Assembly (NCBI GenBank): GCA_963662335.2 | Contig: CAXXVD010000002.1 | Coordinates: 448,001-512,000, forward strand | DNA from: Chloroflexota bacterium | GTDB lineage: Bacteria > Chloroflexota > UBA11872 > VXOZ01 | DNA length: 64,000 bases | Direction: 5' to 3' | Shown: positions 307-64,000 of the stretch, piece after piece | Numbering within the stretch: position 1 is the first letter of the stretch | Layout: every line of letters starts with the position of its first letter | The notes under the pieces: model-generated | The model's input: only the letters and a program-made list of their open reading frames with translations | The model's database searches: none | What the model was told of the DNA's origin: nothing | Program-made: the position numbers and the translations under genes

Positions 307-525
307 TTAGCCATTTCGCAAGATTGTGGTAATGACAGTCAAGAGGCCGCCAAAGATGGCGATGCACAGTATGAGAATGACATGGACTTCCCACTGCGTT
401 CTTGCCACTACCTTGTTGGTAGCTTCGATCATGCCCTTAGCCTCGGCCACGCTCTCCTTTGTAGCCAAATACTCGCACGTACGTTCGACAATCGCGATCC
501 TCTCGTCTAGGGAAGGTCTGAACAA
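307..525 (-). CDS. Small coiled-coil + C-terminal TM protein (DUF1640/CCDC90-like), 5' end disrupted by IS5
   Basis: LDERIAIVERTCEYLATKESVAEAKG plus a hydrophobic tail. It resembles the ORF at 62523-62711. The first 5 codons lie within the IS inverted repeat. Confidence 0.55.
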   Translation of the reverse strand: MFRPSLDERIAIVERTCEYLATKESVAEAKGMIEATNKVVARTQWEVHVILILCIAIFGGLLTVITTILRNG

Positions 526-1731
526 GTCGGTTTTAGCCAGGGAAGTAGTGGTGCGGGATTGTGGTGGTCATTTGAGGAGTGTTTTGGCGATTGAGCGGGG
601 CTGTTTTGCCCCACTGTGGGCGCTGCTGGGAGCGTTTTTTGCTCCCGCTCGTGTTTTGGGCGCACTACGCCTGTGTCAGGCCACCAAGCGGGGTGCGGTC
701 GTGGCCAGGTTGGCCAGTCCCAGCAGCAGCGCCAGCCGTTGCGTGTATTTGTGCAGGCCCCGGTAGCGCACCGTGGCGTAGCTGTCTTCGACAAGGTCGC
801 CGAAGCGCCGCTTCACCCAGAGGAACGGATGTTCTACCTTGGCCCTGACCGACGCTTTGCGCTGCTCTGCCAGCGCCGCCGCGCTCCCTGCCGTCAGCCA
901 CCGCCGCTGCCCAGGCCGCAGCGCCACCTGCCAGACCACCGCGCGCCCCTGATGTTCCGGCCGCTTCTGCACGCCTATGTACCCCGCGTCTCCCCAGACC
1001 TCCTGCTCCGCCCCGTGCAGCAACACCGCCGCTTGCGTGATGTCGTGCACGTTGGCCGACGTGGTGGCAAGACTATGCACCACCCCCGTCGCCGCGTCTG
1101 CCCCAATGTGCAACTTCATCCCGAAATGCCACTCGTTCCCCTTCTTCACCTGTCGCATCTCCGGATCCCGCTCCCCCGCAAGGTTCTTCGTCGATGTCGG
1201 CGCCGCGATAATCGTCGCGTCCACCACCGTCCCCTCCCGCAGCCGCAACCCCTGTGCCGCCAGATGCCCGTTGATCTCCGCCAGCAACCGCTCGCCCAAC
1301 CGGTGCTTCTCCAACAAGTGCCGAAAGTGCAGGATCGTCGTCTCGTCCGGCAACGCGTCCCGCAGCCGCAACCCCACGAACCGCCGCACCGGTTCCACCT
1401 CGTACAGCATGTCCTCCATCCCAGGGTCGCTCAGGTTGTAGAACAACTGCACACAGTGGATCCGCGACCTTGTCGAAGACAGCAGCATCACCGACAAGGG
1501 ATACGGCGGCCGCCCCCGTCCCGCTTTGGGATAGAACGGCGCTATGCACGCCTCCAACTCCGCCCACGGGATCAAGCCGTCCATGTGCTCCAAGAACTTC
1601 TCCCGACGCGTCTTGCGCTTCTTATGCGTGTACTCCATCTCCGCAAACGACTGCTGCTCCATCACCTTACTCCTCCACTCGCGGCATTTCCTTGGTATCA
1701 TAGGTATGCCACGTACTTGTTCAGAGGTTCC
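511..1731 (-). mobile_element. IS5-family (IS5 subgroup) insertion sequence
   Basis: IRs GGAAGGTCTGAACAAGT (511-527) and ACTTGTTCAGAGGTTCC (1715-1731); YTAR flanks CTAG and TTAG; contains a transposase. Confidence 0.92.
676..1701 (-). CDS. IS5 family transposase (likely start ATG near 1662) with two 6-aa in-frame insertions
   Basis: QQSFAEMEY..KRKTRREKFL, GRPPYPL, PDETTILHFRHLLE, VDATII, WHFGMKLHIG, WGDAGY, RAKVEHPF. Confidence 0.93.
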   Translation of the reverse strand: MIPRKCREWRSKVMEQQSFAEMEYTHKKRKTRREKFLEHMDGLIPWAELEACIAPFYPKAGRGRPPYPLSVMLLSSTRSRIHCVQLFYNLSDPGMEDMLYEVEPVRRFVGLRLRDALPDETTILHFRHLLEKHRLGERLLAEINGHLAAQGLRLREGTVVDATIIAAPTSTKNLAGERDPEMRQVKKGNEWHFGMKLHIGADAATGVVHSLATTSANVHDITQAAVLLHGAEQEVWGDAGYIGVQKRPEHQGRAVVWQVALRPGQRRWLTAGSAAALAEQRKASVRAKVEHPFLWVKRRFGDLVEDSYATVRYRGLHKYTQRLALLLGLANLATTAPRLVA

Positions 1732-2831: not shown

Positions 2832-3925
2832 GAGACCTTTGCGTAATCCTGGTTTTGGGCGAGACAGAGGCGTGCCGGGCTGGGAAGCGGGATTTTTCAG
2901 CTTCCGCCGGGGGGTGTTCTTCGCCCGTGCGTGAGTATTGAGCGGGCTCTTTGCCCCCGCGCAGGGGTCAGATTGGTGCTGTGGAGGTGCGGGAACCGGG
3001 TTCCCGCCGTCTCTGCTCTGCCTTTCTCGGTTAGGCCGCGCGTGCCAGCAACGTCTCCGCCGTCCGCAGGTTGTACGCTATCAGTTTGAACCACACCTCC
3101 ACGCCGTTGCGGCCCAGGCCGCGGTAGCGCACCCGCCGGTAGCCGTAACTCCGCTTCAGCGTGCCGAACACCCGCTTCACCACCGCCCGCACCGGCGCTA
3201 TCCGCGCGTTGCGCTCCTGCTGCCACTGCGGCAATTCCCGCTGGTGCTTGTGCGACCGGTGCATGATGCAATCGTCTATCCCCTGTGACCGCAGCCACTC
3301 TCGCCGCCGCTTGGACTCGTACGCCTTGTCTGCGTACACCGCCTCCTCGTCACCACAGACCAAGTGGTCCGCCACCTCACTCTCAGATACTTTGGCCGGC
3401 GTCAGTTCCGCCCGCCGCACCAACCCCGACCCTAAATCCATCCCCACGTGCGCCTTGTACCCATAGTGCGCTTGCCGCTTGGCCCCGCTGCGCGTCCAAT
3501 CCGCGTCCGGGTCTTTCTCCCCTTTCTGCCCTAACTCCGCTTTCACCGACGGCCGCCGCACCTGCGCTTCCACCAGCGTCGCGTCCAGCAACGTCCCGTT
3601 CTTCACCACCAACCCTCGCTCCTCAAACTGCGCTCCCAACTCCGCAAACAACGCCTCGCTCAATCCATGCTCCGCTATCTGCGCCCGAAACCGGCTCAGC
3701 GTCGAGTGATCCGGCGTCTTGTCTGCCAATCCCAACCCCACGAACCGCCGGAACGAGAGCCGATCCCGCAACATCTCCTCCATCACCGGATCCGATAGGT
3801 TGTACCACTGCTGCAACAACAACACCTTCACCATCACCAACGGCGGATAGCTTGGCCGACCCCGCTCAGACGCATAGATGCCCGACACCAACTCCCCCAT
3901 CCGCTCCCAATCCACCGCCGCCAGG
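2832..3925 (-). mobile_element. IS5-family element (IS1106-like end), 5'-truncated
   Basis: Terminal GAGACCTTTGCGTAATCC at 2832. No matching second IR was found; the transposase lacks its N-terminus. Confidence 0.8.
3031..3915 (-). pseudogene. IS5 family transposase, N-terminally truncated
   Basis: GRPSYPP, LQQWYNLSDP, PDHSTLSRFR, LDATLV, YGYKAHV, YADKAY. The catalytic Glu position reads RAVVKRVF instead of R.VE..F. Confidence 0.8.
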
Positions 3926-5629: not shown

Positions 5630-5952
5630 GAGTTGATCCCTTCGTGAGCGTTGCTGGAAAGGGGACGAGCGGGCAGTGAACTGTGACTATTATAGCAAAG
5701 CCGGCGGCCGGGGTGGGGCTGGCGGACCGAGACGTGATGGCTTCAAGAGGCGAGGTTCCTGTCATTCCGAGCGCAGCGAGGAATCTACGCGCGCCCGCAC
5801 GAGATTCTTCGTCGCTGCGCTCCTCAGAATGACAGAGCTTGAGAAGGATGACAGCCTGAAAAGGCGCTCTGTGCATGCGCGGTGTCTACGGCCGCCGCGT
5901 GGGGTGTGTCCGCGCCTGCTCATGCCGCGCACGAGCGCCGCCGCCGTGACGC

Positions 5953-6049: not shown

Positions 6050-6195
6050 AGGCGGGGGACAAGCCCCCGCGCTACGACATTTGCGCAGTGGCGGGGATTG
6101 AGACCCCGTGATACGGCATATGCGCAGTGGCGGGGGCTGAGACCCCGTGATACGGCATATGCGCAGAGGCGGGGAACGAGCCCCCGCGCTACGAT
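6050..6195. repeat. Tandem array of four ~39-bp REP-derived units
   Basis: GGCGGGG...CCCCGYG.TACGRCATWTGCGCAG units with varying hairpin loops. Confidence 0.85.
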
Positions 6196-6229
6196 CCGTC
6201 AGTGAATTGTGGAAGAGAGTTGCGGTCGT

Positions 6230-8680
6230 ATGCGGAATATCCTGAGCGGGCTGCTGGGCAGCCGGAGTGAGGAGGAAGCGCGGACCGCCACGCGTGCGCG
6301 GCAACGGGACGCCGGCGACTTTGGCGCGTTGCTGGGCGACCTGGGCGGCGGCGTTCTGCTCTACGAGGATGCGTTCGTCCTGGGCAGCGACGCCTACCGC
6401 CGCCGCCAGCCGCCGCTCGCGCTTGCATTGGAACGCGGCGACGAAACTGCCTACCGCGAGATTCAGAGCCAGTTCGACGGCTGGGACGGCGCGCGGAGTT
6501 TTGCGGGCGCTGTGCCGCGGGCGCGCGAGGTCTTCCGCCATTGCACGCCGCGCATGACCGCCACGCTGCGGCAGATGGCGCACGTGCTGGGCGGCGCGAG
6601 CGCGGCCAACCCTTCCCTGCTGCTCACCGGGCCCACCGGCTGCGGCAAGACCACACTGGCCAAGACCTTCTGCCACCTGGCAAACGAGCCGTGCGTGGAG
6701 ATCACGTTCAGCGGCGATACGGCGCTCAGCGACTTCTACCAATCGGTGGAGGTGGTCACCCAGGCCGGCAGCCAGGCGCACAGCACGGCCACGGTGCTCG
6801 GTCCGGCGGTGGACGCCATGCTCACCGGCAAGAAACTGCTGCTCAACGAGGTGAATATCATTCCCCAGGACCTGCTGAGCGTCTTCACCCAGGCGCTGGA
6901 CGCGCGCCAGGTGGTCCTCTCCGGCAGCGAGTGGGGGAACGTGACCGTGCCGGTGCACCCGCAGTTCGGCGTGATCGCCACCGCCAACCCCAACTACACC
7001 GGCACGCTGGAGATCGGCGTTACCTGGGAACGGCGCTTTGGCCGCGGCACGGGCAACGTGGCGCTGGACTTCCTGCCGCCGGAAGAAGAGGCCGAGGCGG
7101 TCTATCACGAGTTGCGGCGCGTGGCGGCGCTGGCGCAGGTGGGCGCGCCGCCGCCCATGGAGGCCTGCACGGCCGCGGCTGCGGTGGCGGCGGAACTGCG
7201 CAGCCACCCGGAACTCGGCGGCATCATGCGCGACCGGATTTCCACGCGCTCGTTAGTGCACTGGCTCAGCGTGTGCGGCCTCACCGGCTTTGCCATGGCC
7301 GCGGTGGCGCGGGACGCGATCTTGACGCTCGCGCCGCCTGAGGCGCGAGAGGAAGCGGCCGCGCTTGTGGGGAAACTGCTGCGCACCGTGGGCTGGCCCG
7401 CGCGGACGCAGCGCCGGGTGAGCGGCGTGCTGCTGCCGGAGATTACCGTGCCGGAGGAGAGCGTGGTCGCGCTGAGCAGTCTCGCGCCCGCGCCGACGCC
7501 CTTTGCTCAGGACGAAGAGAGCGCCCAGCGCGCCGGCGGGTTGGAGCAAGAGGTCTACCAGCCGCTCGACGGCGCCGCATCGGGCGGCCAACCGGCGCTG
7601 GCGCGCTACCAGTGCGTTCTCCCCGACGGCACGCGCTTGCGCCTGGAAGAGCCGCTCTACACCTGGGCCGGAAACCCCATGGCCCTGGGGCTGCGCCTGC
7701 GGGCGTGGGATCCAAACGGGTTCGAGATTGCGGACCCGGCGCGGCTGGAGGCGTTGGAGGCCGTCCTCGGCGCGGAATACGGCCTCACGGTGCCTAGGCC
7801 AATTGGCAACGTGCCGGCCGCCGGCGTGGCCCTGCCCTGCCTGACACGCTCCGGCTGGACGGCGCTGCGCCTGCTGGAGGCGGCGCTGGCGCTCGACCGG
7901 CCGGTGTACGTCAAAGGCCCGCCGGGCAGCGGCAAGTCGGCGCTGGTGCGCACGCTGGCCCGGCTGCGGCAGACGCCGCTGGTGGAACTCTCGTTTACGG
8001 GCGAGACCTCCAAGCACGACCTGCTGGTCAGCCGCCGCCTGCGCACGGGCGAGACCCAATGGACGGTGCAGGCCTTTCTGGAAGCGGTGCTCAAGGGCTA
8101 CCTGGTGCTGGTGAACGACTATAACCTGGCCTATTCGGACGTGCACTCCCTGCTGAATAGCCTCTTCGACAAGGGCCGGCGCATTACGCTGCCGGACGGC
8201 CGGACGGTGACGGCGCACCCGGGCTTCCGGCTGGTTGCCACCGGCCAGCCGGAAGGCCCGGGCGTGAAGCCGCTCAACGAGGGCGTGGAAAACCGCTTCG
8301 GCGCGATTCTGGAACTCGCGTATCCGTCGTCCGGCGAAGAACTGGCCATCCTGCGCAGCGTGGGGCGCGGCCTGCCCGCGCCAACCCTGCGCGCGGTGGT
8401 GGACTTCGTCGGCCAATGCCGGCGCTGGGCGGCCGGCGCGGCGCCGGAGGACCTGGCGCAGGAAACGCTCTGGCAGGACGCGGTCTCGCCGGAGTTGATC
8501 GCCGCCGTGGCGGCGGCCGGCAACTGGAGCACGGCGGAATTGGTGGCGCTGGCGCGAGAGGCGGAAGACGGCGCGGCGGTGGTGGAACGGTTCCAGGAGG
8601 GCGTGCTCTCAGCCGCCAGCCCCGCCGCCCGCCGCATCCTGGAGGCGCTGCTGCTGCAATATAACGTGACGGTAGAGTGA
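6230..8680 (+). CDS. Tandem (double) AAA+ ATPase, MoxR/CbbQ/midasin-like (AAA_5)
   Basis: Two P-loops, GPTGCGKT and GPPGSGKS. Walker B LLLNE and LVLVND. HPQFGVIATANP / HPGFRLVATGQP; ERRF / ENRF. Confidence 0.88.
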   Translation: MRNILSGLLGSRSEEEARTATRARQRDAGDFGALLGDLGGGVLLYEDAFVLGSDAYRRRQPPLALALERGDETAYREIQSQFDGWDGARSFAGAVPRAREVFRHCTPRMTATLRQMAHVLGGASAANPSLLLTGPTGCGKTTLAKTFCHLANEPCVEITFSGDTALSDFYQSVEVVTQAGSQAHSTATVLGPAVDAMLTGKKLLLNEVNIIPQDLLSVFTQALDARQVVLSGSEWGNVTVPVHPQFGVIATANPNYTGTLEIGVTWERRFGRGTGNVALDFLPPEEEAEAVYHELRRVAALAQVGAPPPMEACTAAAAVAAELRSHPELGGIMRDRISTRSLVHWLSVCGLTGFAMAAVARDAILTLAPPEAREEAAALVGKLLRTVGWPARTQRRVSGVLLPEITVPEESVVALSSLAPAPTPFAQDEESAQRAGGLEQEVYQPLDGAASGGQPALARYQCVLPDGTRLRLEEPLYTWAGNPMALGLRLRAWDPNGFEIADPARLEALEAVLGAEYGLTVPRPIGNVPAAGVALPCLTRSGWTALRLLEAALALDRPVYVKGPPGSGKSALVRTLARLRQTPLVELSFTGETSKHDLLVSRRLRTGETQWTVQAFLEAVLKGYLVLVNDYNLAYSDVHSLLNSLFDKGRRITLPDGRTVTAHPGFRLVATGQPEGPGVKPLNEGVENRFGAILELAYPSSGEELAILRSVGRGLPAPTLRAVVDFVGQCRRWAAGAAPEDLAQETLWQDAVSPELIAAVAAAGNWSTAELVALAREAEDGAAVVERFQEGVLSAASPAARRILEALLLQYNVTVE

Positions 8681-8739
8681 GCGCGGCGGTCGATCCGTAG
8701 CGCGGGGGCTTGTCCCCCGCCTCCTGCGACGCGCCGCTA

Positions 8740-8783: not shown

Positions 8784-9032
8784 AAAGAGAAGATGAATTC
8801 CCGCGAAGGGGAATTCACCATGATCGGACAACAGCCACATTAGAGAATGAAGATGAACCGTTCTTTGTCCGTCATTCCCGCGAAAGCGGTAATCCATCTT
8901 CGCCGCGCCCGCAGTGGATTACCGCTTTCGCGGGAATGACGGATACCATCGCGCTACATTCATCGTATTTGCGAAATCGTAGCGCGGGGGCTTGTCCCCC
9001 GCAGCAGCGGGAGCGCGGCACGAGAGCAAGGC

Positions 9033-11030
9033 ATGGCCACAACGGCAACAACAAACGCGGCAACGCGGGCCGAGGCCCGCGTGCGCGAAACGCGCTACAC
9101 CCACGGCGAGGTCGTGGCGCTGGCGCGGCTGATTCTGCGCGACGCGCGCCTGAACGTCGTTGCGGGCAGCGAGTGGGCCTACAGCGCCCGCGGCCACACC
9201 CTCGCGTACCCGTCGCGGGTGCTGGACACCTGGCCCGGCACCAGCGTCGTCGGCGCGATCTGCCAGCAGATGGCGGAAGCGCGGCACACCGGCGTCATGG
9301 GTGAGCGGGCACTCCAGAGCTTTGCCCGCATCGCGCCACTGGACTTCGGCGCCGTCATGCCGTTCGCGCGTTTCGTCAACGAACTGCGCGTCAACCGCAT
9401 GCACCTGGAGCGGCACCCCGGCTCGGCGCGTTTCCTGCGGGCGCTCTACGCCGACAATCCCCAGTGGGCGTCGGCCCGGCGGCGCAGCACGCCCTTGCGG
9501 GAACAGGTGGAGCAGGGCTTGCTGGCGCGCTGGCTCCAAGAGGTGTGGCCGGAGCGCGCGCGCCCGCCGCGGGTTGGCGGCGCAGCGCACCGCTACGTGG
9601 AGGCGCTGTGGCCCGGCGTGCGCGACGCGCTGCTGCGGGACTCCATGCCGCAGATGTTGGACGTGCTCGCGCGGCGGATGCTGCCGATTCTGGACGAACT
9701 GGTGGCGGAAGACGACCGGCGCGCCCGCCAGCGGCCCGAGACCGAACGGCCTACGCCCGAAGAAGACGCGAGCGCCGAGGACGAAGCCGAGGCCCTGGGT
9801 GAGTTGCGCATCGAAACGGTCGTGGCTGAGGCCGGTTCAGCCGCCGCCCGGCCAGAATCCGGCGAGCGGCAAGATTCCGCCGATTCCAGGTCCGATTCCG
9901 AGCCGGAGCCAGGCTCAGCGGCTGAAGACGGCGGCCCGGCCAAGGTGGAGAGCAGCCCCCACGAGCAGGCCGAATTGCGCGACGACGCCGAGCCGGGCGC
10001 GCAGCCGCAATCCCGTCCCCAAGGCCCGCCGCGCCTGATCGACCCGCGCATGTTCAAGGCGCGTCCCGGCCAACTCACGCCCATGCCGCGCACCATCGTG
10101 CAGGGGCTGGGCGAGCGGCCGGCCGCGCCCAAGACCGACTACGAGAACTTCGACTACCGCGCGGCCGTGCGGCGGCTGGAACCGGCCATCCGGCGCTCGC
10201 TGGACGGCGAGGCCGGACGGAAGGGCCTCAAGGAGATCATGATGCGCCGCCGCTTTGGCACCCTGGAACCGGGGCGGCGTCCCCGCCGGCGGCGCGGCGG
10301 CGACAGCGGCGAGATCGACACCGACCACGTGGAGCGCCTGGTCGTCGCGCCGGAACAAGCCTTCCTCAAGGGCGTGCGCGCGCCGCGGGCGGACCACCAG
10401 AAGGACTTTGCCGCTATCATCCTCATAGACGTCAGCGGCAGCATGGTGGCCAAGGGCTACTCGACGCGCAAGTTCGACCACACCGTGAACGCCGCGATCA
10501 TCTTCAGCGAGATCCACGAGCGGCTGCGCATTCCCTACCAGATGATGGCGTTCTCCGAGGAGGTCTGGCGGCTGCGGACGTTCGAAGAATGCGCGTTCGC
10601 GACGCAGGTGGTGGCGAACGAGCGCACCTACACGCCCAAAGACCTGAGCGGCGTCTTTCGCGCCATGTACGAGCAGCCGCACAAGAAGACGGACGACGCC
10701 GGCGCCGTGCGCCAGGCGGTGGCGGACGTGCAGCAGCAGAAGGGATTCAAGACTATACTGGTCTTAACGGACGGCATCTCCTCCAACCGGCGGAAGTTGC
10801 AGGAGGTGCTGCTGCGCGTGGAGCGGCGCAACGGGATGGTCGGCGCCGGCGACGCGCTGGGCATCATCGTCTTCGGCATCGGCGTGCCGGGCGACGCGCT
10901 GAGCGAATCCTACGTGGCGCAGGCCGACGGCAAATTCCTGCGCTGCCTGCAAACGGTGGTGGTGCCCGACGTGTCCCGGCTGCCGCGCATGATACAGACG
11001 ACGATCGAGCGCCGCATCCGCGGCGTATAG
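9033..11030 (+). CDS. VWA-domain protein (CobT/NorD-like architecture) with acidic linker
   Basis: MIDAS IDVSGSM ... T ... LTDG; E/D/P-rich linker; N-terminal helical domain. Confidence 0.88.
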   Translation: MATTATTNAATRAEARVRETRYTHGEVVALARLILRDARLNVVAGSEWAYSARGHTLAYPSRVLDTWPGTSVVGAICQQMAEARHTGVMGERALQSFARIAPLDFGAVMPFARFVNELRVNRMHLERHPGSARFLRALYADNPQWASARRRSTPLREQVEQGLLARWLQEVWPERARPPRVGGAAHRYVEALWPGVRDALLRDSMPQMLDVLARRMLPILDELVAEDDRRARQRPETERPTPEEDASAEDEAEALGELRIETVVAEAGSAAARPESGERQDSADSRSDSEPEPGSAAEDGGPAKVESSPHEQAELRDDAEPGAQPQSRPQGPPRLIDPRMFKARPGQLTPMPRTIVQGLGERPAAPKTDYENFDYRAAVRRLEPAIRRSLDGEAGRKGLKEIMMRRRFGTLEPGRRPRRRRGGDSGEIDTDHVERLVVAPEQAFLKGVRAPRADHQKDFAAIILIDVSGSMVAKGYSTRKFDHTVNAAIIFSEIHERLRIPYQMMAFSEEVWRLRTFEECAFATQVVANERTYTPKDLSGVFRAMYEQPHKKTDDAGAVRQAVADVQQQKGFKTILVLTDGISSNRRKLQEVLLRVERRNGMVGAGDALGIIVFGIGVPGDALSESYVAQADGKFLRCLQTVVVPDVSRLPRMIQTTIERRIRGV

Positions 11031-12472: not shown

Positions 12473-12560
12473 TGGGCTTGTCCCCCGCCCGGCGCCGGGC
12501 CGGATTTCCTGATGGATTCCCGCTTGCCCGGGAATGGCAGACTCTGGCGCGGCGGGAGCG

Positions 12561-21499: not shown

Positions 21500-21845
21500 A
21501 GCTATCCTTTCGCGTATGCCGGCGCGCCTGAGGCCGTGGGTAGAGTATGCCACGGGCGCGTGATGCCGCGCCTCTTCACGCCGGTAGCGCGGGGGCTTGT
21601 CCCCCGCCGGGTTGGCCGCAGTGCGCCTAGGATTTCCCGTAGCCGTCCAAGACGGATTCCCGCGTTCGCGGGAATGACGGATTGTAGCGCGGGGGCTTGT
21701 CCCCCGCCTCTTCGCTTCCCAACGGACACGGTCTCCACCACATCCCTTTGGCCGCGCCGCCTTGCCCGCAGCCGCGCGGCGGCGTATGCTATGGGCAGCG
21801 CGCAACTCACGCCTGACCCCGCAACGAGTGACAGAGATTCTCCCC

Positions 21846-27101: not shown

Positions 27102-27355
27102 CGAAGCGCCGAGCCCACGCCCATCGTTAGCATACCATTAGGCGAATCGACGCGCCGCCAAGCACTTTGCCGAGATGGTGGGCGCGGTTTGCGGCAAGAA
27201 GCGGGGGACAAGCCCCCGCGCTACGGTGATGGTGGGCGCGGTTTGCGGCTAAGAGCGGGGGACAAGCCCCCGCGCTACGGCTTGTTCGCTGGGATCAAGT
27301 GCACGTGCAGCACCCGGGGCGCTAGGCAGGTCCAGTTGACTAGCGGCCGGCGCCG

Positions 27356-37163: not shown

Positions 37164-37256
37164 GACGCGCGCGGGGGCGCGGAATCCATTCGGGAGGCCC
37201 GCGAAGATAGATTCCCGCTTTCGCGGGAATGACGGAGTTGCTACCCGCTTTCTTCG

Positions 37257-37529
37257 CCGTTCACCCTTCGACGTTGCTCAGGGCGAACGGCTTGGTTGCG
37301 CTATCTTCATGGTAACGACGGAGTTAGACGTGCCGTTTTCCTGGTAATCACCATGGCCCCACGACGGCCACGCGAGGGAATGAAAGTGAACGCACCTCTC
37401 TCCGTTCGTGCTGAGCCTGTCGAAGCATGAACGGAGAGAGGTGCGTGCGGAGTTGCTGCCCGCCTCCTCCACCGTTCACCCTTCGACGCCGCTCAGAGCC
37501 TGCCCCGTACTCGATACGGGGGCGAACGG
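37257..37529. repeat. Cluster of CCGTTC..CTTCGAC..GCTCAG..GAACGG palindromic repeats
   Basis: Copies at ~37257-37290, ~37402-37433 (inverted) and ~37472-37529 (with 24-bp insert). Confidence 0.75.
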
Positions 37530-37553
37530 TATGAGTGCCTATTTTTCATAGAA

Positions 37554-39245
37554 ATGACGGAACGTGGAAATGATGGAACGTGCGGGATAGGCGGCGGTTG
37601 GGGGAGTGACGGCGTGGATGAGACATGGTCGCAGTGGCGGCAGGCGGCACGGATCTTTCCCCGCGCGGCGCATCTCTGGCGCGCCGGGTTGGTGGCGCTG
37701 GCGCTGTGGCTGAGCACGGTGGGCGCCGCCGGCGCGGCGTCTGGGACCCCCTGGCATTCCGGCAGCGCCGCGCCGGCGGGCGCCATGCTGCCGGTCTGGC
37801 AGCTTTGGGTGAACGCGCTCGACCCCGGCGCGTGGACGCAAGCGGAGCAGTCGTGGGTGCCCAGCAGTCCGCCGTGGCTCGTCGCGCCGCACCCCAGCGA
37901 CGCGAGCCGGGCGCTGGCGGCCGGCCCGCTGGGGCTGCATCGCACCACCGACGGCGGCGCAACCTGGACGCGCCTGCCGGGCATCGTGGCGCCGGTGCTG
38001 GCCATCGCCTACAATGCGCTGAACCCGCAGGTCGTCTACGCCGGGACCGAGTTGGGCGGCATCTACCGCAGCGTGGACGGTGGCCGCTACTGGCGGCGCA
38101 GCGACACCGGCCTGCCGCGGGACGGGCTCGGCCACGTGGCCGGCGCGGTGGCCCTGGCGGCCGATCCGGACCGCTCGTTTACGCTCTACGCGGCGACCAC
38201 GCTCAGCGGCGGGCTCTACCGGTCGCTCGACGACGGCAGCGCCTGGGGCCTCGCGAGCGCCGGCTTGCCGGAGGAGCCGGTGCTCGGCCTCGCCGTCACC
38301 GCGAGCGGGCCGCCCCGTCTCTATGCCGCCACGCCGCGCGGCCTCTTCCTCTCCACCGACCGCGGCGGCCAGTGGTCGTTGCTCGGGGCCTTGCCTCTGG
38401 AGGCGCCGACCTCGTCGCAGACACCGACCTCGTCGCAGACGTCGACTTCGTCGCAGGCACCGACGCCATCGCAGACCTCGTCGCAGACGCCGCACAAGTT
38501 GTTGGTAGAGCCGGATGCGTCGGGGCAAGGAATGCTGCTGGTGGCCGCGGATGCGCTCTATCGCTCGACGAACGGCGGGGTGTCGTGGGTCACGATAGAC
38601 CTGCCCGCTGCCATGCCGCCCATCCGGGACGCCGTGTTCGTGGCCGGGCCGGCCTACACGCATCTCTTCGTGGCGGGCGCGGACGGCCCCTACTGGCAGC
38701 GGTTCACGCCGGCCTCGCCGCAGTCGCCGCCGCACGGAGAGTCGGATTCGGAAATCTACGTCGCCATCACCGGGCATACGATTAGAGAGCCGTTTCTCAG
38801 CTTCTTCGCTACCCACGGCGGCGTGGCGCGCTTCGGCTATCCGCGCACGGATGCTGTCAGCGAGGACGGCAAGACGGTACAATACTTCCAACGGGCGCGG
38901 CTGGAGATCGTGACGGACGAGGCCGGCGAGCGCGTGGCGCGGTCGCCGCTCGGTGCGATGCTGCGCTTTGGCGCGCCGTCCGCCGCCGGTGAGTCGTCGA
39001 ACGGGTCGCAAATGCAGTACGCCGTAGACCGGGTATTTGCGAACTTCTACGCCAGCAACAACGGACGCGAGTCGTTCGGCAGGCCAATCGCGCCGGCGGC
39101 GGACGAGGAGCAACGAAACGGGCATACTGTGTATACCCAGTATTTCGAGTTCGCGCGCCTGGAACACTATCCGAATGCCGAGACGCCGGTGCTGCTGGGG
39201 TTGATCGGCGATGAGTACCTGATACGCATAGGTTGGCTGGAGTAA
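37554..39245 (+). CDS. Secreted BNR/WD40-like beta-propeller protein with C-terminal Chloroflexi-type surface repeats
   Basis: Repeated YRSxDGGxxW Asp-boxes; TGHTI..F..GG..FGYP, VQYFQRARLE and TQYFEFARLE; start uncertain. Confidence 0.8.
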   Translation: MTERGNDGTCGIGGGWGSDGVDETWSQWRQAARIFPRAAHLWRAGLVALALWLSTVGAAGAASGTPWHSGSAAPAGAMLPVWQLWVNALDPGAWTQAEQSWVPSSPPWLVAPHPSDASRALAAGPLGLHRTTDGGATWTRLPGIVAPVLAIAYNALNPQVVYAGTELGGIYRSVDGGRYWRRSDTGLPRDGLGHVAGAVALAADPDRSFTLYAATTLSGGLYRSLDDGSAWGLASAGLPEEPVLGLAVTASGPPRLYAATPRGLFLSTDRGGQWSLLGALPLEAPTSSQTPTSSQTSTSSQAPTPSQTSSQTPHKLLVEPDASGQGMLLVAADALYRSTNGGVSWVTIDLPAAMPPIRDAVFVAGPAYTHLFVAGADGPYWQRFTPASPQSPPHGESDSEIYVAITGHTIREPFLSFFATHGGVARFGYPRTDAVSEDGKTVQYFQRARLEIVTDEAGERVARSPLGAMLRFGAPSAAGESSNGSQMQYAVDRVFANFYASNNGRESFGRPIAPAADEEQRNGHTVYTQYFEFARLEHYPNAETPVLLGLIGDEYLIRIGWLE

Positions 39246-50350: not shown

Positions 50351-50510
50351 TTTCCCTGAACTCCCGGCGCCAAGCCGTAGCGCGGGGGCTTGTCCCCCGC
50401 TCCTTCGTGCGCAACGCACACATCACTTCTGGCACAGGCCCAAGCCGTAGCGCGGGGGCTTGTCCCCCGCTTCTTTGCGCGGTGCATACGCTTCCTCTCT
50501 GGCACGGCGC

Positions 50511-51428
50511 TTAGGTGAACGAACGCGGGGAGTGCACCTCCAGTTCGATGCGCAAATCGAGCGTCCAGCGCGCTTGGTTGAGATAGGCGGCAAAGTCCAT
50601 TGGCCGGAAGCCGAGCGTCTGTTCCATTGTTTCCACGTTCGCCGTGAAGCCTGCTTGCCAGAGCCAGTCGTAGTACGCCGCGTAGTCCGCGCCCATGCTC
50701 TCGGCAACCCACTCCGGCGGCAGGGGATAGAAATCCACCGTACGGCCAATGGCGACACCGATCGCTGCGGCAATACCCTCCCACGTGAGCGCATCGCCGG
50801 CGAGGTCGAGGGTCTTGCCGGCCCAGACCTCCGGTTCGCTCAGAATCGTAGCGGCGGCGCGGCCTATGTCGTCCACGGCCACCAGTTGGGTGGCGATATG
50901 CGGCGGCATGGGCGCGTGCAGCCGTCCCGCCAGCAGATTGCCCGCCAGCGCGCCGGCGCCAAAGTTGTCCATGAAGAAGACCGGCCGCAAGATTGTCCAG
51001 GCAAGGCCGCTGGCTTGCAGATACGCTTCCGCGCGCTGTTTCTGCGCGTAGTGGGGCACGTGCGCCAGGTCTGCCGCGCGCTGCACCGAAGAATAGACGA
51101 CGTGCTCTACGCCTGCGTTCCCCGCCGCGTCGATGCACGTTTCAAGCTGCCGCCACTCCGTTTCCGGTCCGGCCGGCTGTGTGGGAGACGCGGCATAGGG
51201 CGTGCCCATGAGAAAGAGGGAGTCTACGCCCTGGCAGGCGCGCCGCATTTCCTGGTGCGCGGTCATGTCGCCGACGACCACCTGCGCTCCGGCTTCGATG
51301 AGCGTTTCGGCGCGGGCAAAGTCGCGGGTTAGGGCGCGCACGGTGTGTCCCGCCGCCAATAGCGCCCTAGCCACCGCGCCGCCTTGCTGGCCGGTAGCGC
51401 CGGTCACGAGCGTCACCGCTTTGGACAT
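50511..51428 (-). CDS. NmrA family NAD(P)-binding protein
   Basis: VTGATGQQGG, HVVYSSV, VPHY..K, TILRPVFFMDN. Confidence 0.9.
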   Translation of the reverse strand: MSKAVTLVTGATGQQGGAVARALLAAGHTVRALTRDFARAETLIEAGAQVVVGDMTAHQEMRRACQGVDSLFLMGTPYAASPTQPAGPETEWRQLETCIDAAGNAGVEHVVYSSVQRAADLAHVPHYAQKQRAEAYLQASGLAWTILRPVFFMDNFGAGALAGNLLAGRLHAPMPPHIATQLVAVDDIGRAAATILSEPEVWAGKTLDLAGDALTWEGIAAAIGVAIGRTVDFYPLPPEWVAESMGADYAAYYDWLWQAGFTANVETMEQTLGFRPMDFAAYLNQARWTLDLRIELEVHSPRSFT

Positions 51429-51511
51429 TGGGAGCAACCCCCCTTCTCTGCGCCTGTGCGCTCGTGAATGGTACCACGCCCGGTGGTATAGTGGTGATGG
51501 GAGGGATTGCA

Positions 51512-51952
51512 ATGGAAGTCTACCGGCAGACGAGCGCGGACGAGCACGCGGCGCTCAGCCGCCGGTTCGCGCCTCAGGCGCAAGAAGAATTCGATAACGG
51601 CGATCCGCTGCAGGCTTCCGAGAAGGCCTGGGGCGCGGCGGCGCACGCGGTGAAGGCCGTGGCCGCGGCCCGCGGCTGGAACCACAACACGCACCGGCTG
51701 CTGTCCGACGTGGTAGACCAAGTGTCTCGAGATACGGGCAATCTTGCGTTGGGCGCGTGGTTCCGAGAGGCCAACTCCTTGCACCAGAACTTCTATGAGA
51801 ACTGGCAGCCGGACTTTTCGGTGCAAGAAGGCATCAAGGCGGTGAAGCGGTTTGTGGACCTGCTGGAAGACATTCGCAGCCGGCCCGCGCCGCCGTCGGT
51901 TGTAATCGACCCCAGGCAGTGGGATCGGCTTACGCGCGCGCCAGCGGAATAG
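51512..51952 (+). CDS. PaREP1 family (HEPN-like) protein
   Basis: GDPLQASEKAWGAAAHAVKAVA..RGW and ANSLHQNFYE signature. Confidence 0.85.
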   Translation: MEVYRQTSADEHAALSRRFAPQAQEEFDNGDPLQASEKAWGAAAHAVKAVAAARGWNHNTHRLLSDVVDQVSRDTGNLALGAWFREANSLHQNFYENWQPDFSVQEGIKAVKRFVDLLEDIRSRPAPPSVVIDPRQWDRLTRAPAE

Positions 51953-52059: not shown

Positions 52060-52875
52060 GGGTCTGTTTATACTAAGCGCAAAGCATCGACGATGATGGC
52101 AAAGACAATGAAGGCGGCGTAGATGCTGTCGAGTTTGTCGTAGCGGGTATAGATCTTGCGGAACCGTTTGAGCCTGCCGATGAAGCGTTCCACCTCGTTG
52201 CGTCTCTTGTATACCTCCTTGTTGTAGGCCCACGGCTCTCTGCGGTTCCGTTTCGGCGGCACGACCGGTTCATACCCCAGACGCCGTGCCAGCGCTCTGG
52301 TGGTCTCCCCTTCATAGGCGCGGTCCATCGCCAGATAGGGTGTGCCTGCCTGTGTGCCCACCGCGCGCAGCAACTTCTCCCCTTCCGGGGCGTCGTGCGC
52401 CTGCCCAGGCGAGAGGCAGAACTGTACCGGACTACGCTCGTCGACAACCAGCACGTGGCTCTTGGTGGTCACTCCCCCGCGCGAGCGGCCAATGGCCTGG
52501 GGTCCGTCTTTTCCGCGCCCCAGTGCCCTGTGGGTGCACCGTGACCGTGGTGCTGTCCAGGGCGGCCACGACCACCTCGGTGCGGAGCACTCCCTGCTCA
52601 CGCAAGGCCGCCAGCACACGATCCAACACCCCAGTCCGCGCCCAGCGGCTCAGCCGTGCGTAGATGGTGCTCCACTTGCCGTAGTGGGGCGGCAAGGCAC
52701 GCCACTTGCAGCCGTTCTCCGCCATGTAGAGCACGGCATTGAGCGCCTGCACGTTGGATACCCTGACGTTCCCGCGCGGCACCGGAAACAGATGTGCGAT
52801 ATGCTCGTACTGCGCTTGTGTGATTCCACAATGCCACTAGAATACCACAGTAATCTGCTTAGTTTAGACATGCCC
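52060..52875 (-). mobile_element. IS5-family element (IS427-like, two-ORF transposase), probably inactive
   Basis: IRs GGGTCTGTTTATACTAAGC / GCTTAGTTTAGACATGCCC, inserted in CTAG with TA duplicated. OrfA ENGCKWRALP..GKWSTIY; OrfB GRSRGG.TTK, DRAY, YKRRNEVER, TRYDKL. Confidence 0.88.
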
Positions 52876-58553: not shown

Positions 58554-59043
58554 TGGTAGGGCATCTCCTGGTTTGCGCTAACGCCCGCCGTCTGTCAGCA
58601 GGCGCACGCGGTTGCGGCAAGCGACCGTCACGTCCGGTCAACCGAGACTGCACGCACTCGCTGTGTTGAATTGTACGTCATTCCGAGCGCAGCGAGGAAT
58701 CTGGAGCTTACGATAGCAGGGCTTGATAGTGGTGCGGCAATCAAGAGGCTGCGGGCGGGACAGTGCGTATTTTGGCGCTGCTGGCAATCGGCAACCGGCG
58801 CTGCTGGCGCTGCGGATGAGGAGAATGGTAAGAGCCCCAGAGTCCGTCATTCCCGCGCACGCGGGAATCCATCTGCGCCTCTTTCAGGACAGAGTGACGA
58901 GCGAAGAGCCAACCGCCGGTATTCGCACAAGCGAGCTAAGACGGATCAGCCCGGAGCACGGGCAAGAACGGCGCGCCGGAAACCGCCTGGAACGTCCAGA
59001 TGACGTAGGAACCCGGCAATCCGTGGCAAGGAAAGCGCAAAGA

Positions 59044-59313
59044 GGCCGCGCCTTTCCATCGATTCCGCCCCCTGAAGCGCCCACGCGGCGCTAGCTCCGG
59101 CCAAGCTTCCTTGCGGCACCCGAAAGTAACCGCTTACCGCTGCTTCCTTCCGGACCTGACGGGGTTCACGGCCTCTCGCCGCGCAAGACCCAGCCATCAA
59201 CGCCGCAGACCACGCGGCAGCCTCCAGGACGCGCAAACCTCACGGAAAGCTGTCAACCCCGCTATAGCGGATTGCGGGTAACAGGGCACCGCTAACTCCC
59301 CGCCTAGCACGGC
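59044..59313 (-). ncRNA. ffs: Signal recognition particle RNA, large (Alu-containing) type
   Basis: Minus strand begins GCCGTGCTAGGCGGGGAGTTAGCGGTGCCCTGT (Bacillus scRNA-like). It contains the helix-8 motif GTCAGGTCCGGAAGGAAGCAGC, its ends pair, it is ~270 nt, and it lies upstream of dnaX. Confidence 0.93.
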
Positions 59314-59323
59314 CTCGGGTTTA

Positions 59324-59353
59324 ATGCTACGCAAACTCAAGCCACAGCGTCAA
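59324..59353 (-). promoter_or_regulatory. Putative ffs promoter
   Basis: Minus-strand TTGACG-N18-TAGCAT just upstream of the RNA 5' end. Confidence 0.5.
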
Positions 59354-59359
59354 GCGCTG

Positions 59360-59791
59360 CCGGTTGAAGTTGGTGGGATCAAGCAATGGAGAAAATCGAC
59401 GAGACGCGATGGCGGTGGAATTACAAGTCGTAGGCTTTACTTTTCTATTGCCACTCTGGTCTCCCCACGTCTGACTGCGTCGTACATCAGTGCTTTCCAG
59501 AATCACAACATTGATCCGCGCGCAATCCTCATGATGGACTATTCCACCGGCTTCAACGGAGTTCTTGACCAAGTGCTGCACCTGCGCGTCAACCATAGCG
59601 AGCGCTATGCAGATAGCGCGATTCGCGCCAGCACCATTGAGAGATTATGGTCATTGGTGAAGCGTGCGATTGCCGGCCGCCACTACACGGTAGAGCACAC
59701 TGCGTCCTACATTGATGAGGTGGCGTACAAGTACAGTATTGGGAAGTCTGAAACGCCCTGGGACGACTTCATGCAGAGGGGTGTGGCTTAG
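59360..59791 (+). pseudogene. IS1595-family transposase C-terminal remnant
   Basis: IDP.AILM.D, HLRVNHSERY, STIERLWSLVKRAI.G.H, YIDE..Y.Y pattern; N-terminus missing. Confidence 0.75.
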
Positions 59792-63295: not shown

Positions 63296-63740
63296 TATAG
63301 ATGGTCTTCCTGTGGCGTAGCGCGGGGGCTTGTCCCCCGCTGGCCTCTGACATGGGTACGTCTTCAGTGATCGACTTCACGAGTCATTCCGAACGGAGCG
63401 CAGCGGAGTGAGGAATCTTAGGCGCTGCCCCACAATGTCAACATCTCTAGATTCCTCGCTGCGCTCGGAATGACATTTATGTACCCCTGTCAGCCCGCAC
63501 GGGTGGTGGGGTGCGCCGGCAAAGAGAAGATGGATTCCGGCTTGCGCCGGAATGACGGAGAGAGGCGCGGCCGTGCGGCACGTGACGTGATTCCGCACGG
63601 TTTGGTAGGGGAAGTCCCGCTCCACCGGAGCGGGGCTTGCTTCATTAGTTGGGTAGACGACTTTGTGGGGTTTGGATTCGCCGTTTTTGCCACCAGACGC
63701 GGTGGCGGAGACGCGCTTGGGCACGTGTAAGCTCTCTCAG

Positions 63741-64000
63741 AGGCGGGGGACAAGCCTCCGCGCTACAAGGTGTGAGGCCCCATGCTTCGGACCAAGAGCG
63801 GGGGACAAGCCCCCGCGCTCCAGGGCGTGAGGCCTCATGCTTCAGACCAAGAGCGGGGGACAAGCCCCCGCGCTACAGGGCGTGAGGCCCCATGCTTCGG
63901 ACCAAGAGCGGGGGACAAGCCCCCGCGCTACAGGGTGTGGGGCCTCGTGCTAGGGAGCAAGAGCGGGGGACAAGCCCCCGCGCTACAAGGTTTGAGGCCC
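63741..64000. repeat. 55-bp tandem array of REP-containing units (5 copies, runs off window)
   Basis: REP GCGGGGGACAAGCCYCCGCGCT at 63743, 63798, 63853, 63908 and 63963, with near-identical linkers. Confidence 0.9.

Follow-up and report, generated by a model that had tools for sequence, protein, structure and literature searches.

How does a transposase gene come to carry the same short run of bases twice, in frame at both places and in opposite orientations? The question is raised by a 64,000-nucleotide stretch of the Chloroflexota contig CAXXVD010000002.1 (positions 448,001 to 512,000; hereafter the window, within which coordinates are counted), where an insertion sequence (IS) of the IS5 family contains the exact 16-mer TGTCTTCGACAAGGTC at 783-798 on the forward strand and again at 1466-1481 on the reverse strand. 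GC stands on either side of each copy, giving the 20-mer GC-TGTCTTCGACAAGGTC-GC at 781-800 and its exact reverse complement at 1464-1483; on re-reading the window, we found positions and letters to be just as an earlier, sequence-only reading had reported them. Comparison with related proteins indicates that one short repeat unit entered an ordinary IS5-family transposase gene on two separate occasions, both fairly recent. Here, we examine this pair together with related insertions in other genes and genomes, and we hold it to be very probable that all of these are real and recurrent insertions of a single unit family. The manner of their copying is a more delicate matter. The reading that we prefer, with a probability of roughly 0.4, is that of a discrete unit that is copied in and duplicates a 2-bp target at a staggered break.

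Two Insertions in One Transposase Gene

Both segments lie within a single intact gene (table 1), the product of which contains the Pfam domains DDE_Tnp_1 (2.6e-21) and DUF772 and scores 298.6 bits against the NCBIfam model NF033581 (transpos_IS5_4), whose cutoff is 140. On the gene strand they are read as ML[LSSTRS]RIH and RFG[DLVEDS]YATVRYRG, both in the open reading frame (ORF) 676..1662/1701 (-): LSSTRS makes up residues 61-66, inside the N-terminal DUF772 domain, and DLVEDS residues 289-294, 4 residues past K284 within KVEHPFLWVKRRFG. Among 8000 candidate proteins scored, 7919 matched, and the best 120 were compared. The alignment with these relatives opens two clean 6-residue gaps precisely at the insert positions, which bears out the earlier proposal that 18-bp in-frame inserts interrupt canonical IS5 motifs. 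The same reading had asked whether close IS5 homologues might all contain the extra residues; they do not, LSSTRS being present in 0/120 (P0009 and P0002 included) and DLVEDS in 1/120. The nearest relative, P0002 (316 aa, 93% identical), is without both hexapeptides, and DLVEDS is likewise missing from 118/119 others; its sole bearer, P0009 (264 aa, starting at Met59, 96% identical), reads ML-RIH without the first insert but has kept the second. Since P0009 shares it, the insert at 781-800 is the older of the two, and that at 1464-1483 followed in a very closely related lineage. An IS5-type paralogue within the window (3031..3915, 32% identical) also shows gaps at both places. Family models that depend on alignment can be led astray by inserts of this sort: the insert-free P0002 obtains 334.4 bits with NF033581, and the insert-bearing transposase scores 36 bits lower.

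A search of the window for the 16-mer gives 9 matches at ≤3 mismatches, 2 of them exact, where shuffles lead one to expect 0.30. Because near matches at this threshold occur at a rate of 23 per 890 kb in unrelated loci, the scattered ones in the window mean little. Nor can much be made of the stop-free frames of the insert, to which the earlier reading had drawn attention, for 50% of random 20-mers taken from the window are stop-free in all six frames.

Table 1. Positions of the Insert Unit, Its Host, and a Related Array in the Window
Feature	Position	Strand	Remarks
Whole insertion sequence	511..1731	.	1221 bp, or 1185 bp once both inserts are removed
Host gene, intact IS5-family transposase	676..1662	-	328 aa from the start used by homologues; upstream ATG at 1701 gives 341 aa
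Insert site 2	781..800	+	GC + 16-bp core + GC, 18 bp net; gene (-) strand reads DLVEDS
Insert site 1	1464..1483	-	Unit of site 2 reversed; gene strand reads LSSTRS
Tandem array of related 18-bp unit	38404..38492	+	Tandem Repeats Finder consensus CCGACCTCGTCGCAGACA, 15/18 to the insert unit

The Unit in Other Genomes

The exact 16-mer was compared with 185,579 species genomes; at least 119 stretches matched, and those listed were examined. By our arithmetic ~280 exact matches would arise by chance in 596 Gb with equal base use, and most of the listed matches are therefore noise. Several groups among the 119 have conserved coding flanks in common, and a homologue of the host transposase was found in none of these 119 loci, the window's own IS not being among them. 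Four of the matches listed belong to the Chloroflexota (L028, L042, L076, and L101). Two of these were rejected as insertions, the 16-mer being native in a der/engA-type gene, where it encodes NKWDLVED (L042), and in a segment of an Asn/Asp-tRNA synthetase, where it encodes DVFDKV (L101).

The case of L028 is different in kind. Here, a PrpD-family gene contains two head-to-tail units, GACTTTGTCGCAGACA-GC-GACCTTGTCGAAGACA, that is, an exact core and a 2-mismatch copy with GC between them, amounting to 36 bp and in frame. In an alignment with 28 relatives, the full L028 protein (P0121) alone has the corresponding 12 residues, DVFDKVAVCDKV; 27/28 of these relatives (70-84% identical) cover the site, P0149 ending short of it, and 27/27 are without the insert. 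The doubt whether the 16-mer would occur anywhere else as an insertion or deletion, which the earlier reading had left standing, is thereby removed. P0121 is known from a 23-kb contig as well as from the L028 chromosome. The residue that follows the site is Ala (GCN), so the empty site would contain GC. The 8-kb L028 locus also has one copy of a repetitive extragenic palindromic (REP)-like family, TAGATTCCTCGCTGCGCTCGGAATGACA, which is present in the window too and ties the two genomes together.

In L076, the unit is flanked by GC on both sides, the sole such case among the 119 listed matches, and it lies between genes, 5 bp past the stop codon of a groES-like gene; it is a possible genuine copy. 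At 6238-6269 of that locus a direct repeat of 7 bp, CACCGGC ... CACCGGC, encloses the unit and is longer than the GC seen elsewhere. The 20-mer was not found in plasmids and phages (best match 19 nt, E = 0.2), and searches for an Rfam family overlapping the unit and for a matching solved structure returned none.

Diverged Members and a Census of Insertions

A more distant relative of the unit is found in the window itself, in the BNR-repeat gene of ORF 37554..39245. The unit is here repeated about four to five times as an array of (P/S)TSSQT repeats (table 1), which constitutes a 28-residue insertion with respect to the orthologues: in 24/26 of them (56-75% identical) there is nothing at the site, and in the other two, P0241 (90% identical) and P0242 (83%), there is an 18-residue, three-unit version. 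The array has grown, from three units in orthologues that are 83-90% identical to nearly five in the window. CC stands on either side of the units and between them, from which it follows that the duplicated dinucleotide varies with the site.

Yet another member is suggested by an IS5 relative (P0006) with an extra LTSSKT at a third IS5 site, which a single base change in the unit would yield in its third reverse frame. The second L028 unit carries the variant GTCGCAGACA, as does the array in the window; this common variant and the fit of LTSSKT link the diverged forms to one another. A pattern built after the fact, GACYTYGTCGMAGAC, matches only the places of the family in the window and, among the listed loci, only L028, twice. 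Altogether, single units, pairs, and arrays are seen, either orientation occurs, 4/6 reading frames are used, and 5/6 of the sites are inside genes. A further likeness put forward earlier, to a repeat near 37413, did not hold up: it amounts to 11/13 bases in one copy, which is not above chance.

An insertion census was made over 51 PrpD, 25 BNR, and 112 IS5 homologues, from which 3, 0, and 8 sequences, respectively, had been dropped by length. All of the rare internal insertions of ≥6 residues belong to this unit family, and the remaining ones are of 4 residues only.

Could it be that nothing was inserted at all, the residues being ancestral ones lost in the relatives, the product of an assembly or library artefact, or matched elsewhere by coincidence? 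The native 16-mers of L042 and L101 and the conserved coding flanks common to several groups of listed matches are of the kind that such an account predicts. So is a look-alike at 264-276 of the window (TGTCTGCAAGGTC, with 12 bases in common with site 1 and its flank), which proved native, a 61%-identical homologue being gap-free there with identical residues. Against this stand the exact and repeated losses that would be needed in 118-120/120 IS5, 27/27 PrpD, and 24/26 BNR homologues, the fact that the genes with inserts are intact and keep their frame, and the presence of the inserts in independent assemblies (P0009; P0121 in its contig and in the L028 chromosome). We consider this account barely credible.

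A Discrete Unit or a Copying Accident

The process that we have in mind would begin with a 2-bp staggered break, at which a function acting in trans would copy in the 16-bp core as one discrete piece, leaving the target dinucleotide (GC here) on either side of it. The sum of 16 and 2 is 18 bp, which always keeps the frame, and genic insertions could for this reason survive as hexapeptides; tandem copies might then be formed by replication slippage or by re-insertion at the duplicated dinucleotide. That boundaries are discrete and repeated while the dinucleotide changes with the site (GC or CC) argues for a defined unit at a 2-bp break, and the occurrence of the exact core in three genomes and the dominance of one family among mid-size insertions likewise argue for a defined unit.

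A number of observations weigh against this proposal. Copy number is low, no third copy at ≤1 mismatch being found in the 64-kb window and each of the 119 listed loci holding a single exact match. The core is without terminal inverted repeats, its ends (TGTC... and ...GGTC) not forming an inverted pair, and it folds no better than shuffled sequences (z about -1), with 4-bp stems only. A scan of 56 window ORFs (43 against Pfam and 17 against NCBIfam, 6 of them against both and 54 in all, plus the two IS5 transposases) found no reverse transcriptase, no Y1/HUH enzyme, and no transposase other than those of IS5 and IS1595 type. The left flank in L028 is GA and not GC. L076 taken alone proves little, because with a left GC in 9 and a right GC in 11 of the 119 listed matches ~0.8 GC/GC cases are expected by chance. 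The empty sites are those of protein alignments, and the PrpD and BNR sets of the census were picked for carrying the unit, the IS5 set alone being unbiased. The right flank, in the orientation of the core, is GC in 4/4 exact sites, GCCG in 3 of them (L076 among these), and GCCGAAGC in 2, namely L028 and site 2 of the window; for a random pair, the chance of sharing a prefix of ≥8 is 3.5e-5, and such a common flank looks like priming by donor-flank homology and not like transposition.

Some of these results also bear on what the earlier reading had supposed. A strict GC target duplication is not supported by the sites, GC/GC being present in 3/4 exact copies only (left GC in 3/4), with GA on one side in L028 and CC around the array units. 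The RAYT or reverse transcriptase gene for which it had advised a search is missing among the 56 ORFs scanned. A hairpin as the driver was rejected, the folding being no better than that of shuffles; the variants of the unit on which covariation would be judged are few. The core had no significant match, in our reading, to the inverted repeats of its host IS.

The flank homology leads directly to the possibility of template switching, in which no dedicated element is called for. A growing strand ending in GC would re-pair with the GC beside an existing copy, on either strand since GC is its own complement, and copying would end at the next GC, 16 bases on, after which the strand would return to the place that it had left. 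The segment at 1464-1483 would then be a fold-back copy of 781-800, and the copies in other genes would have been primed by longer chance homology to the flank of the donor. A good deal is in keeping with such a process: the two copies in the IS are identical and stand inverted on a single molecule, with the older copy (the only one that P0009 has) as the proposed donor; there is GC at both junctions of a GC-free core; the homology to the flank of site 2 is one-sided and graded (2 nt at site 1, rising to 4 nt in L076 and to 8 nt in L028); and at a distance of 10 nt from site 1 there is an inverted match of 8 bp to the core (p about 0.03). The varying number of units in arrays shows that slippage acts on these units, low copy number suits rare accidents, and short inverted copies made in this way are documented (PMC7202029; 10.1101/2021.11.26.470150). 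A generic process, however, should copy arbitrary GC-to-GC intervals, of which 8% are ≥16 nt (GC-free over the length of the core) in a window with 8289 GC dinucleotides, yet all insertions of ≥6 residues in the three sampled gene families are of one unit family. Moreover, the exact core recurs in three different genomes, the identical two boundaries recur three times, and at 3/4 sites the native flanks have no significant homology to the unit (p 0.86, 0.15, and 0.41). The IS copies are 683 bp apart, and the survey cited (10.1101/2021.11.26.470150) kept only events spanning ≤250 bp. Template switching seems to us the main rival explanation, possible albeit somewhat doubtful.

Fixed unit length might also be the mark of a dedicated template, the unit being resynthesised, for instance by a telomerase-like reverse transcriptase with its own RNA, onto a broken end that pairs with GC. 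Single, double, and multiple head-to-tail units, both orientations, a one-sided end-homology of variable length, and one core in different genomes would all be expected of such synthesis. The enzyme is lacking among the 56 ORFs scanned, no Rfam family lies over the unit, and the array units end in CC and not GC, which a fixed template would not give. We know of no bacterial precedent for telomerase-like unit synthesis, and we consider it very improbable here. A similarly low likelihood attaches to excision scars, that is, to 18 bp left behind by a larger transposon with 2-bp target duplications and imprecise excision. The dinucleotide duplicated on both sides is what a scar would have; independent sites that are identical to the base, tandem copies in addition, and core halves that are not mutual inverted repeats are not, and neither a larger intact element with such ends nor half-sites were found in the window, L028, L042, or L076.

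Our preference for the copied-in discrete unit brings us back to the earlier supposition of an ultra-small copy-in element acting in this lineage. That a very short unit is copied in within this lineage is supported; active mobility with a dedicated mechanism is not, given the low copy number and the lack of inverted termini and of an enzyme. A stronger version, which would make of the 16-bp core a genuine mobile element, non-autonomous and smaller than any seen so far, moved in trans in either orientation with a 2-bp duplication, we can put forward only tentatively and believe to be rather unlikely. If it were true, a stop-free six-codon unit could colonise protein-coding genes, the transposases of other mobile elements included, and a mobile core would create hexapeptide insertions and seed peptide-repeat linkers. 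If one 18-bp unit has truly been copied into unrelated genes, then it is smaller than every repeat for which movement is known, and the mechanism would be a new kind of mobilisation or else long-range template switching with an unexpected sequence preference. Either way, there is a concrete route by which proteins gain six-residue (putative loop) insertions and then repeat linkers, and transposase genes can themselves carry smaller passengers.

The Host Insertion Sequence and the Surrounding Window

The terminal inverted repeats of the host IS lie at 511-527 (GGAAGGTCTGAACAAGT) and 1715-1731 and match at 15/17 positions. The target duplication of the IS5 group is a 4-bp YTAR; the flanks, CTAG (507-510) and TTAG (1732-1735), both fit it but disagree with each other in one base. 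The IS is inserted in a copy of the REP-like repeat TAGATTCCTCGCTGCGCTCGGAATGACA, exactly at its TAG end. This palindromic family has 8 core copies in the window, with members at 1733-1760, 20691, 33404, 40891, 46600, and 63448 and, inverted, at 5761, 46535, and 58677. Relatives of the IS on plasmids are 63-68% identical at most. The IS5 homologues P0001, P0003, P0015, P0018, and P0105 have large internal tandem duplications of 42-135 of their own residues, which are either real within the IS copies or due to assembly collapse of adjacent copies. Three transposase remnants are also present: an N-terminally short IS5_4-type gene with flanking CCCTCTCCCTCA repeats (3031-3915, -), an IS5_3-type C-terminal fragment (52068-52619, -), and an IS1595-type fragment (59324-59791, +) adjoining a signal recognition particle RNA gene (59046-59312, -).

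In other respects the window is ordinary chromosome, with genes for DNA polymerase I, ribonucleotide reductase, ProRS, DnaX, G6PD, and pyruvate kinase, and those best protein matches that bear an organism name are Chloroflexota. One REP-like hairpin with a GTAG tag, GTAGCGCGGGGGCTTGTCCCCCGC, is very abundant: the 18-base core of it occurs 24 times in 64 kb (for example at 8696-8720, 21683-21707, and 50376-50400). It also forms tandem arrays, with periods of 39, 54, and 55 bp, at 6051-6194, 27174-27280, and 63743-64000, the array at 63743-64000 continuing past the window end. These arrays are not CRISPR, since their "spacers" are themselves repeated. A third hairpin family, GTCATTCCCGCGAAAGCGGGAATCC and its variants, is found at 8867-8943, 12502-12541, 21642-21681, 37197-37236, 58842-58879, and 63520-63559 and often adjoins the GTAGCGCGGGGGCTTGTCCCCCGC family. 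The intergenic region upstream of the BNR gene (37233-37561), which holds the repeat once likened to the insert, consists of nested palindromes, CCGTTCACCCTTCGAC...GCTCAGGGCGAACGG; a 23-bp near-perfect inverted repeat occupies 37390-37446, and the block also has a direct repeat spaced by 215 bp. Elsewhere, a protein with two AAA_5 (MoxR/GvpN-like) ATPase domains (6209-8680, +) is followed by a 665-residue ORF (9033-11030, +) with no Pfam or NCBIfam match, and the two may form a two-gene system. The first 50 bases of a PaREP1-family gene (51428-51952, +) are repeated with 77% identity 491 bp downstream (about 52003), beside the IS5_3 fragment.

Comparison with Known Systems

Very short repeats that insert into other sequences are not without parallel. 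The small dispersed repeats (SDRs) of Nostocaceae cyanobacteria, SDR1-8, were reportedly described by Elhai et al. in 2008. SDRs are 21-27 nt long, numerous per genome, and limited to the Nostocaceae, and they have a conserved secondary structure with compensatory changes. The present unit resembles them as a very short repeat inserted at many kinds of site, encoding no enzyme, with a mechanism that has not been established. Unlike them, it measures 16 + 2 bp, is represented in 64 kb by one array and 2 exact copies, belongs to the Chloroflexota, and is often tandem, and no conserved fold of it is convincing. The sites into which SDRs insert include other repeats and mobile elements, SDR5 going into HIP1, a fixed short G+C palindrome (PMC5861425).

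Among repeats that enter coding sequence, Rickettsia palindromic elements (RPEs) are about 150 bp long, palindromic, and numerous, with 44 insertions in R. conorii (PMC10969869). As there described, they too are inserted in unrelated coding genes, keep the frame, and add a peptide; the unit is about a tenth of their size and rare. PARCEL is a coding unit of 25 residues (75 bp) that builds whole repeat proteins (PMC2996958). It shares with our unit the nature of a coding repeat, dyad symmetry, tandem arrays of variable number, and apparent spread between genes, whereas the unit makes single six-residue insertions. Template-switch mutations are like the insert pair in being short inverted copies on one molecule that have microhomology where the template is switched and need no agent other than the replisome (PMC7202029); the quasipalindrome cases are local and copy nearby sequence (10.1101/2021.11.26.470150), unlike a unit that recurs across genes and genomes and a pair separated as widely as that of the IS. 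By the test of an inverted copy, 1464-1483 does stand to 781-800 as template switching would have it, being identical and inverted, with GC at both junctions.

REPs are G+C-rich hairpins, 20-40 nt in length and tagged by GTAG or CGTC, mostly extragenic, and are moved in trans by the REP-associated tyrosine transposase RAYT (Y1/HUH). The unit has no such hairpin or tag, 5/6 of its sites are genic, there is no Y1 gene among the window ORFs scanned, and it is not a member of the window's own REP-like family of at least 24 copies. REP/REPIN and IS200/IS605 systems have sequence conserved on one side and no inverted termini, which would fit the one-sided GC(CG) flank of the unit. REP/REPIN elements with their RAYT transposases and the "peel and paste" of IS200/IS605 are the subjects of PMC3116915, PMC3733652, and PMC6006769.

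In the literature searched, no matching 18-bp in-frame repeat insert was found, which does not amount to proof that none has been described. When set against MITEs, the miniature inverted-repeat transposable elements, the core has no terminal inverted repeats, and its flanks are GC/GC in 3/4 exact copies, CC/CC at the array, and GA/GC in L028, where empty sites are those of protein alignments only. The unit thus lacks the defining features of MITEs, SDRs, and REPs that were tested and is a kind of very small dispersed in-frame repeat.

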